A program made the position numbers and the translations under genes. The notes under the pieces are model-generated. The model did no database searches and was not told the origin of the DNA. It saw nothing but the letters and a program-made list of their open reading frames with translations. DNA of 64,000 bases, taken from NCBI GenBank assembly GCA_046292385.1, contig JBKBRF010000020.1, positions 45,495 to 109,494 on the forward strand, read 5' to 3'. Numbering within the stretch: the stretch's first letter is position 1; every line of letters begins with the position of its first letter. Origin of the DNA: Armatimonadota bacterium. GTDB taxonomy: Bacteria; Armatimonadota; SYMT01. Shown piece by piece: positions 32,140-32,600 of this stretch.

Positions 32140-32600
32140 CACAGAGCACACCGAGGACACAGAGACGAACCGGAACGGGTTTCACCGCAGAGACGCAGAG
32201 GACGCGGAGAGAACCCGAACCTTTTCAACCGCCAAGAACGCAAAGGACGCAAAGAGGGGAACCGGACGAGACAAACCGCGGGGCCGCAGTACGGTGCTCG
32301 TGAGGCGCATCAGGCCCAGAACTCCGTTCCCCTCTCCGTGCCCCCTCGGTGCGCTCTGTGTCTCTGTGGTGAAACCAGGTTCGGACCGGGGCCGCTGTAC
32401 GGGACTCGTGAGGGGAACCAGGCCCGTCCGAGTCCTTCCCTGGTTCCCCTCTGCGTTCCCTCTGCGCTCTCCGCGGCCTCTGCGGTGAATCCGGTTCGGA
32501 CCGGGGCCGCAGCACGGTGCTCGTGAAACGGATCAGACCCAGAACTCTGGTTCCCTCTCTGTGCCCTCTGTGCGCTCTGTGGTGAGACAGGTTCGGAGTG
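32140..32600. repeat. composite repeat array locus 1: three about 45-bp A units (core CACCGCAGAGACGCAGAGGACGCGGAGAGAACC) then three (C + B) units, B being the reverse complement of A (GGTTCCCCTCTGCGTTCCCTCTGCGCTCTCCGCGGCCTCTGCGGTGAA) and C about 50 bp (GGACCGGGGCCGCWGYACGGNACTCGTGAG...GGCCCAGAACTCY)
   Basis: Direct alignment of units within the locus and to the second locus at 44372-44690. Confidence 0.7.

Follow-up and report, generated by a model that had tools for sequence, protein, structure and literature searches.

Two intergenic composite repeat arrays were analysed in a 64,000-nt stretch of DNA, referred to as the window, from an Armatimonadota bacterium (GTDB lineage SYMT01; GenBank assembly GCA_046292385.1, contig JBKBRF010000020.1, positions 45,495 to 109,494 of the forward strand). 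The window belongs to a metagenome-assembled genome. Locus 1 (32138-32597) occupies the spacer between rny, the gene for RNase Y, and a convergent gene for a hybrid sensor histidine kinase, with stop codons on both sides. Locus 2 (44385-44690) fills the entire spacer between a cytochrome P450 gene and a co-directional gene for an FdhA-like molybdopterin oxidoreductase (fdh), leaving just the ribosome-binding site before the fdh start. The elements lie 0-11 nt from stop codons. The first-pass annotation of this DNA, made from the letters alone, had placed both arrays at gene ends, after rny and between the P450 stop and the formate dehydrogenase start, and the gene map agrees with this placement.

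Organisation of the arrays

Both arrays are composed of three kinds of unit, A, B and C (Table 1), which are ordered A1 A2 A3 C1 B1 C2 B2 C3 B3 at locus 1 and A1 A2 C4 B1 C5 B2 at locus 2. The three purine-rich A units of locus 1 follow one another at 45 and 45 nt, start to start, and its three C+B units have periods of 108 and 115 nt; at locus 2 the two A units are 47 nt apart and the two C+B units 101-107 nt apart. At both loci the B units have the sequence of the A type in reverse complement. Conservation within C is highest in the core CGGGGYCGCWGYACGGNRCTCG, which is present in five copies in the window, all on the + strand and confined to loci 1 and 2, against 0.18 copies expected by chance (0/100 shuffles reach five), and a profile built from the five C units recovered no additional copy elsewhere in the window. 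These unit numbers (3/3 and 2/2), the spacings and the core count bear out the architecture of n A units followed by n C+B units that had been proposed for the two loci. The C units, which are flanked by GGTTCGGACC and CTCTGGTTCCCC, are mutually 70-81% alike, and the B segments resemble each other and match A, in agreement with the earlier statement that the arrays are not CRISPR-like.

Read in the purine-rich sense, an arm consists of a (T)TCAC·C boundary followed by 3-4 tandem C-R-C-R-R-A-G units, each with 1-4 nt added, at a period of 8-9. The heptamer types are CACAGAG, CGCAGAG, CGCGGAG, CGCAAAG, and CGCCAAG, and the arms close with GGGGAACC or GAACCGGAAC after the heptamer units. Since the arms are built of heptamer runs, each 45-nt A unit is in turn a punctuated short tandem repeat. 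All ten arms of both loci have a (T)TCAC·C-like start and CRCRRAG units; the start is slightly degenerate in the A arms (TTCAC, TTCAAC, TTTAAC, TCCAC, TTGAAC), and the canonical GGTGAA end, followed by GGTTCGG, was found in 5/5 B arms. The A and B units are without regular G3 tracts and are not G-quadruplex formers.

Two candidate identities were rejected. An attC site was suggested by the A starts ..TTCAAC and ..TTTAAC, which come near RYYYAAC, and was ruled out since the family is bounded by TTCACC and an integrase is absent. A reading of CCGGTTCGGACCGG as the T-arm of a tRNA-like structure was ruled out as well, the loop being without the conserved A58 and no ARAGORN-type or Rfam tRNA match being obtained there.

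Table 1. Coordinates, in the window, of the array units and of the genes that border them
Feature	Coordinates	Strand	Description
Locus 1 A1	32138..32184	+	Purine-rich arm CACAGAG/CACCGAG/CACAGAG, then GAACCGGAAC punctuation
Locus 1 A2	32185..32227	+	TTTCAC·CGCAGAG-A-CGCAGAG-GA-CGCGGAG; 29 nt identical to locus 2 A1
Locus 1 A3	32228..32275	+	TTCAAC·CGCCAAG-AA-CGCAAAG-GA-CGCAAAG, then GGGGAACCGGAC
Locus 1 C1	32276..32328	+	C module of ~50 nt with core CGGGGCCGCAGTACGGTGCTCG; contains 13-mer GTGCTCGTGAGGC
Locus 1 B1	32329..32384	+	Pyrimidine-rich CTCCGTG/CTCGGTG/CTCTGTG x2, end GGTGAAA, then GGTTCGG
Locus 1 C2	32385..32445	+	
Locus 1 B2	32446..32499	+	CTCTGCG type, 4 units, end GGTGAAT, then GGTTCGG
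Locus 1 C3	32500..32552	+	
Locus 1 B3	32553..32597	+	CTCTGTG type, 3 units, end GGTGAGA, then GGTTCGGA; stops 5 nt short of kinase stop codon
Locus 2 A1	44385..44431	+	CGCAGAG type
Locus 2 A2	44432..44478	+	CGCGGAG/CGCAAAG/CGCAGAG
Locus 2 C4	44479..44536	+	
Locus 2 B1	44537..44592	+	CTCTGCG type, 4 units, end GGTGAAT + GGTTCGGA
Locus 2 C5	44593..44645	+	
Locus 2 B2	44646..44690	+	End GGTGAAAT; outer flank adjoins P450 stop codon
rny (RNase Y)	30586..32127	+	Stop 11 nt before locus 1 A1; protein 100% identical to MFN3650922.1
Hybrid sensor histidine kinase	32602..35445	-	Convergent with rny; its stop (32602) borders locus 1
FdhA-like molybdopterin oxidoreductase	41241..44357	-	ATG 44357 and GAGGAAG ribosome-binding site adjoin locus 2
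Cytochrome P450	44694..46094	-	Upstream of the oxidoreductase, co-directional; stop 44694

With a metagenome-assembled genome as the source, a simpler tandem repeat or single hairpin might have been scrambled by a short-read assembler. Such an artefact is very unlikely here. The repeat units diverge by 10-30%, and the exact stretches that they have in common do not exceed 29 nt, which is below the usual final k-mers and makes repeat-driven misassembly unlikely; moreover, the same architecture stands at two loci with different unit counts and ~79% identity, and independently assembled relatives have long nested rods at the rny site. Repeats of this kind yield spurious ORFs (open reading frames) and pose a hazard to assembly and annotation. 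A 96-codon ORF on the - strand (32225-32515) crosses locus 1; in all likelihood it is spurious and due to the absence of stops in the repeats.

Folding and arm pairing

The predicted folds of locus 1 have energies of -240.4 kcal/mol on the + strand (z -6.5) and -256.2 kcal/mol on the - strand (z -7.1), and those of locus 2 have energies of -162.5 (+ strand, z -6.6) and -160.9 kcal/mol (- strand, z -6.4). Both loci give nested long rods on either strand, as had been anticipated in the first-pass annotation, and no shuffled control is as stable. Its further claim that each A can pair with a B holds in a stronger form: every A aligns locally with the reverse complement of every B (scores 12-27), so that every A is able to pair with every B.

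The choice of partner is ambiguous, with score margins of only 3-6 units, so that the order can be called neither purely nested nor purely same-index. The best partner at locus 1 is B3 for A1 and B2 for A2, which fits nesting, and A3 is without a good partner; A3 and B1 are of different heptamer types. At locus 2, arms and outer flanks taken together give same-index pairs, A1 with B1 (CGAACCGGGAATCCAC / GTGAATCTGGTTCGG) and A2 with B2, so that the pairs are interleaved and not nested, by small margins (25 vs 20 and 26 vs 23).

A scan of the window against Rfam at the gathering threshold returned a single match, a tRNA at 17372, and a scan of locus 1 at an E-value threshold gave chance miRNA-like matches only (E>0.28). 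These results bear on the idea of a small-RNA or guide-like array, in which C would be a scaffold or a promoter-terminator module and each B would be antisense to an A in the neighbouring 3' untranslated region (UTR). C is indeed a conserved module of ~50 nt in direct orientation beside variable B segments, and the B segments are complementary to the A segments. We nevertheless hold such an array to be very improbable, given that C is without supported structure or covariation, that neither promoter-like sites nor an Rfam match were found, that the B segments are alike and not unique, that the strict C core was not found outside this genome, and that the A...B hairpin is widespread without C.

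Relation of the loci and conservation downstream of rny

In whole-array alignments, locus 2 was best matched by [A2 A3]+[C2B2 C3B3] of locus 1 (242/306 identities, 79%), other combinations being slightly worse, and the top scores of the arm matrix are cross-locus (locus 1 A2 with locus 2 A1, 36/55; locus 1 B2 with locus 2 B1, 58/71). Because locus 2 aligns whole to part of locus 1, the 2x2 array was most likely copied as one piece, and on account of this whole-array paralogy the two loci are not independent evidence for an assembly rule. Locus 1 has one A and one C+B more than locus 2.

Contigs of relatives with an RNase Y 72-80% identical to that of the window were compared. The recA-recX-rny order is retained in them; the genes after rny differ, and a hairpin always follows. 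In three relatives (contigs L013, L163 and L028) the same arm type begins 5-15 nt past the rny stop. L013 has both arms (CACCGCAAAGGCGCAAAGGACGCAAAG ... CCTTTGCGGTGAGG; 61 nt, 77% complementary), which enclose a second hairpin of ACAGGAT units, and in L163 TTAACCGCCAAGACGCCAAG ... CTTGGCGGTTAA enclose ACAGGAT-type arms in a rod fold with z -9.4. The closest relative, L028 (RNase Y 80%), has a four-unit A arm and a vestigial GCGGTGGA. Arms of the same family are located at other sites in L029 and L014. At the rny site the element keeps a fixed place in relatives with an RNase Y only 74-80% identical, and from comparison of these sequences we conclude that an A-loop-B hairpin has long been present at the 3' end of rny.

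A profile of the five C units matched nothing significant in the sequences of the relatives, and its best match in the rny-downstream spacers had E=0.25. The exact 13-mer GTGCTCGTGAGGC of locus 1 C1 is present at the corresponding place of the rny-downstream spacer in L028 (P=0.0035, dinucleotide shuffles), and the spacer in L163 has a 12/14 match to locus 1 C3. Judged from these short matches, C probably descends from the loop of the ancestral rny hairpin.

The arm family in other genomes

The arm pattern CACC-RCRRAG-N1-3-CRCRRAG-N1-4-CRCRRAG was scanned in IMG/VR and was found at at least 120 loci or contigs; the arms (196 and 204) and hairpins (32 and 34) counted here are among the IMG/VR matches listed. 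In 196 distinct arms the base before CACC (-1) is T in 84% and the base at -2 is T in 69%, neither position being part of the pattern; spacers are mostly 1-2 nt and a single heptamer type usually fills the arm. A CTYYGYG-type partner lies at most 600 nt downstream in 115/204 arms and upstream in 4/204. The same dominant heptamer is used in both arms of 23/32 distinct hairpins, compared with 7.2 expected (0/100000 permutations reach it), and the arms therefore covary. Loop length varies from 9 to ~400 nt and loop sequences are unrelated between members, and alike loops are possible within one contig (L058, L081/L132).

Carriers of such hairpins include Armatimonadota, a Bacteroides fragilis prophage (L044, assigned by a 100% identical collagen-like protein), two contigs with Acido-Lenti-1 RNA (L092 and L125) and many other phage-like contigs, with contig G+C from 32 to 71%. 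Acido-Lenti-1 RNA is known from Acidobacteria and Lentisphaerae. No Rfam family was found over the hairpins at 19 viral-collection loci. Together with the arms after rny in relatives and the other tandem-repeat hairpins of the window, these contigs do away with the impression of an isolated oddity at two loci.

Nested or stacked double hairpins are common among the matches listed (L125, L094, L093, L109 and L124), of which L125 is a clean nest with matched types, A(CACAGAG) A(CGCAGAG) loop B(CTCTGCG) B(CTCTGTG). Few stretches (10 among the matches listed) start with A-A in tandem, and 0 of them are followed by (C+B)n; the stacked layout with C modules has so far been seen in this window only. 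The strict C-core pattern gave 12 single matches in 185,579 species genomes (one per GTDB species), which lie in coding-like DNA of unrelated taxa and, being coding-like and without A/B flanks, are taken as chance; JGI metagenomes gave 13 chance matches and IMG/VR gave 0. BLAST of locus 1 returned one weak chance-like match from plasmids and none from phages, the low-complexity filter probably masking the arms, and BLAST of the B. fragilis hairpin region against phages returned one weak unannotated match.

Several family members have features of their own. In the B. fragilis prophage, TTCACC-CACAGAG-type hairpins (L044, 1179-1636 and 3492-3589) lie beside the collagen-like protein gene, and one 398-nt loop consists of three tandem units of ~125 nt. 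L058 has five copies with alike loops (200-420, 700-920 and 5800-6030, - strand), and inside the arms there is a small GC hairpin with a T run that has the look of an intrinsic terminator. In the phage-like contig L037 (4640-4760, 6410-6530 and 10500-10620) the arm order is reversed, with CTCTGTGGTG, 12 nt and TTCACCACAGAG..., and the reversed arms stand immediately upstream of three start codons that have good ribosome-binding sites, a position suggestive of a role in the 5' leader in this contig. In L054 (1402-1585), L092 (227-408) and L042 (10427-10623), CRCRRAG outer arms surround an inner CGCAGAT-N3 hairpin (e.g. GCCGCAGATCAACGCAGATGAACGC), so that a second arm family, CGCAGAT-N3, is common to unrelated contigs.

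The point of greatest interest is why boundary and heptamer class should stay constant all the way from Armatimonadota to a prophage of Bacteroides, with arms that covary and loops that are unrelated; a specific agent appears to recognise or generate such arms, and B. fragilis offers a tractable host in which to find it. A tentative extension, to which we give a lower probability than to the account in the following section, is that TTCACC-(C-R-C-R-R-A-G-N1-2)n...GGTGAA hairpins form an undescribed cross-phylum intergenic class, in which boundary and unit would be held by a trans-acting factor or by the generating mechanism. Candidates may be a nuclease, a binding protein, or a system of single-strand transposition or of templated repeats, and the stacked A...(C+B) arrays may then be the footprint of unit addition by that mechanism.

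Origin of the arrays

We favour, with a probability of about one half, an account in which a single composite intergenic hairpin, present at the two loci as paralogous copies, is old at the rny 3' end, was locally multiplied, was copied to a second spacer and has a role at the RNA level. The anatomy of the arrays, their folding potential, the family membership of the arms, the conserved position and the whole-array paralogy are directly supported; the slippage origin and the RNA-level function are what we infer. The building block would be a hairpin with 3-4 tandem units of 8-9 nt in each arm, outer bounds TTCACC...GGTGAA and punctuation GAACC/GGTTC, the C sequence forming part of its loop, and within this Armatimonadota lineage it would have stood at the 3' end of rny for a long time. 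Two parts of it would have multiplied in the present genome, the left arm (A, period 45) and the module of loop plus right arm (C+B, period ~110); the most probable mechanism is slippage in replication, or unequal exchange, with the GAACC / GGTTCGGAC punctuation as its site. A and C+B would have been retained in equal numbers since balanced arrays alone fold into one continuous rod, and the 2x2 array would later have been copied in one piece to the P450-fdh spacer.

The main alternative to slippage is nested self-insertion, in which a mobile A-C-B hairpin, similar to a MITE (miniature inverted-repeat transposable element) or a REPIN, preferentially enters a resident A/C junction and produces A[A[A C B]C B]C B. 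Each event would add one A and one C+B, giving equal counts at both loci without selection, and the best pairs of locus 1 (A1-B3 and A2-B2) are those that nesting predicts. Properly nested double hairpins of the family exist elsewhere (L125, L094), and the family is dispersed over many genomes and prophages, with loops alike within a contig (L058, L081/L132). Nevertheless, locus 2 pairs by cross-locus homology and outer flanks in interleaved order (A1-B1, A2-B2), A3 and B1 of locus 1 differ in heptamer type, and the whole alignment of locus 2 to part of locus 1 means that the loci are not independent cases of insertion. No target-site duplication is visible at either locus or at the 34 viral-contig hairpins inspected, and no transposase was seen beside the loci. 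The long residence at the rny site (RNase Y 74-80%) looks like vertical descent, and the loops are unrelated between family members, unlike those of typical MITEs. Self-insertion is thus unlikely, though it is the strongest of the competing explanations.

Possible function

Under the account of an old, locally multiplied hairpin, transcription would make the element the 3' UTR of both rny and the kinase gene and, at locus 2, the intercistronic spacer of P450-fdh. The transcript would form a very stable rod of stacked stems with C as side branches, which would block 3' exonucleases, serve as a substrate for double-strand RNases, or be a partial terminator without a U-tract. REP/BIME (repetitive extragenic palindromic and bacterial interspersed mosaic elements) and Correia elements act in transcripts as 3'-end blocks, RNase substrates or terminators, and by analogy the present element is probably a 3'-end or intercistronic stabiliser, a processing site or a partial terminator in RNA. 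A transcript-level role is suggested by position, as the element abuts stop codons and fills a co-directional spacer. No sigma-70-like promoter was found in the locus 2 spacer, and no promoter-like sites were found at either locus; since only the ribosome-binding site is left at locus 2, read-through with processing or stabilisation fits better there than full termination.

Several observations weigh against this account. The consensus fold of the C units gave no covariation and no supported structure, a comparison of G:T with A:C wobbles favoured no transcribed strand (P=0.31), no U-tract terminator was found at either locus, and the RNA-level role is one that we infer purely. If each arm slipped independently, the equal counts (3/3, 2/2) would need a further explanation, and the slippage model gives no reason for C on one side only. 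The arm pair common to both loci is nested in locus 1 and same-index (interleaved) in locus 2, an arrangement that does not follow from the simple model. Finally, the retention of TTCACC and CRCRRAG across phyla hints at a trans-acting factor or mobility, neither of which is part of this explanation.

Another alternative is an element that works as DNA, the 8-9-bp CRCRRAG array being a set of sites for a protein (such as a recombinase, a nucleoid or a phage protein) or the palindrome being extruded as a cruciform or single-strand hairpin in replication or recombination. The constancy of heptamer class and TTCACC boundary across phyla with unrelated loops, the equally good folding of both strands, the lack of wobble asymmetry, and the existence of partnerless single arms and of reversed arms beside start codons (L037) all favour it. 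We consider a DNA-level element quite improbable all the same: no candidate protein has been identified, the strict placement following stop codons, and between genes of one direction, is more in keeping with transcripts, and arm covariation preserves pairing and not a fixed binding sequence.

If the account of a multiplied RNA-level hairpin is true, this lineage builds long modular RNA/DNA rods at gene ends from short tandem repeats, and the rods stay at one site over deep divergence while their inner layers multiply and are copied to new spacers. The loci are a concrete case for balanced growth of hairpin repeats on both arms, and they raise the question of what the rod does to its neighbours, RNase Y, the sensor kinase, and the P450-formate dehydrogenase pair.

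Other repeats in the window

A run of 7-9-mers, a spacer and a reverse-complement run were also found in other spacers of the window, at 10068-10163 (GCAGGTT), 11816-12017 (GGGGATA), 15249-15551 (GGCCAGG / CCCTGAC) and 20107-20292 (GGGATGA). These four hairpins begin a few to ~100 nt from a stop codon according to a gene map based on GC3. With other spacers similarly built, the A/(C+B) loci are a more elaborate instance of a genome-wide habit.

The motif GGTTCGG/CCGAACC has 24 sites in the window (14.8 expected), including 20141, 20253, 24588, 32215, 32378, 32493, 32590, 44585, and 44641; about ten of them edge different tandem-repeat arms, in the manner of a shared punctuation motif. A dispersed repeat, 'family X', is present at 3353-3532 and 15332-15481 (121/181 identities, with an identical 22-mer CAGCCTGCTTCAGCAGGCTTAC), its second copy lying within the GGCCAGG/CCCTGAC hairpin. 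A third dispersed repeat (24523-24635 and 62635-62740, 77/117 identities) has GAGCAA hexamers, CACGGAGGG and heptamer runs in that order; the heptamer of one copy is CTTTAGC, and that of the other is CCCTAAA, which is telomere-like. At 24165-24285, GAGACGGA is repeated perfectly fifteen times, and a GC-rich, gene-free stretch of ~250 nt (24286-24540) with many local hairpins and no Rfam match follows. A 26-nt inverted repeat (8311-8336 / 8444-8469, 92%) has a 107-nt spacer, and between convergent genes, at 40371-40427, there is a near-perfect hairpin of 26 bp whose loop is 5 nt long.

Comparison with known repeat systems

REP/BIME elements of proteobacteria are extragenic imperfect palindromes able to stabilise upstream mRNA, the REP palindrome itself measuring 20-40 bp. 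Like them and REPINs, the present elements are palindromes at gene 3' ends and between cistrons that are clustered in higher-order arrays; unlike them, their arms are internally tandem-repetitive. BIME units alternate in orientation and have fixed linker motifs, whereas here all forward A units come first, followed by all C+B units. REPIN clusters in Pseudomonas arise by tandem duplication or by insertion into existing REPINs (PMC3116915). REP elements carry a GTAG or CGTC tag (PMC3733652); the ends here are (T)TCACC/GGTGAA without such a tag, which upholds the view of the first-pass annotation that this is not a simple REP. No RAYT (Y1 transposase) gene was seen within the window. None of the units matched a known insertion-sequence end or REP family, and the arms are conserved in relatives, the points on which that annotation had let its proposal stand or fall.

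Correia elements of Neisseria are transcribed hairpins cut by RNase III. The present elements resemble Correia/NEMIS elements and bacterial MITEs in being short, non-coding, provided with inverted ends and dispersed in intergenic DNA, and differ from them in having no target-site duplication, unrelated loops and a fixed place at one orthologous site over long divergence. We know of no cognate insertion sequence for these hairpins. There are two copies of the element in 64 kb, with 79% identity, and the C core was not found in three public collections.

The STRR heptamers of cyanobacteria are a related class of short tandem repeats. The closest described arrangement is that of the GGGAATC heptamer arrays of Xanthomonas, which are overabundant in non-coding DNA and enriched near ORF ends, with 70-75 cases per genome of two convergent arrays on opposite strands that are capable of forming a stem-loop (Rehm et al. 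2015, PMC4692102). Related species keep the same type, most of the arrays are transcribed, and the heptamer unit in Nostoc is GGGGA(C/T)T (PMC4692102). The present loci likewise have 7-9-nt tandem units in non-coding DNA near ORF ends, in convergent arrays on opposite strands that can form stem-loops, and the G-rich hairpins at 11816-12017 and 20107-20292, whose units do contain G3 tracts, resemble the GGGNATC repeats of Xanthomonas and Nostoc. They differ in that the arms are CRCRRAG with a fixed TTCACC/GGTGAA boundary and without a G-tract (GGGNATC) unit, and in that the arms are re-repeated as 45-nt super-units with a conserved 50-nt C interleaved on one side only; stacked arrays of the A/(C+B) sort are not reported in Rehm et al. 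2015 (PMC4692102). Inverted pairs of intergenic short tandem repeats are therefore already known as a kind. The CRCRRAG/TTCACC arm family and the layout of an A array with a (C+B) array appear undescribed in the literature searched, which was not exhaustive: a full-text search with arm sequences gave PCR-primer coincidences only, and one for repeats of Armatimonadetes gave nothing relevant. The earlier statement that no described class could be recognised thus stands in that no known family was matched, and gives way in that inverted tandem heptamer pairs have been described (PMC4692102).

A comparable distribution is seen in the TAACTGA heptamers of Beggiatoaceae, Cyanobacteria and Bacteroidetes, which are tandem and intergenic and have a patchy cross-phylum spread with no evident transfer mechanism (MacGregor 2015, PMC4679880). 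They comprise 169 direct sets and one indirect, located just upstream of start codons, and a post-transcriptional role has been suggested for them (PMC4679880). The present family shares with them a specific tandem heptamer in intergenic DNA and a spread across phyla, and it is distinguished from the TAACTGA direct repeats by its paired hairpin arms after stop codons.

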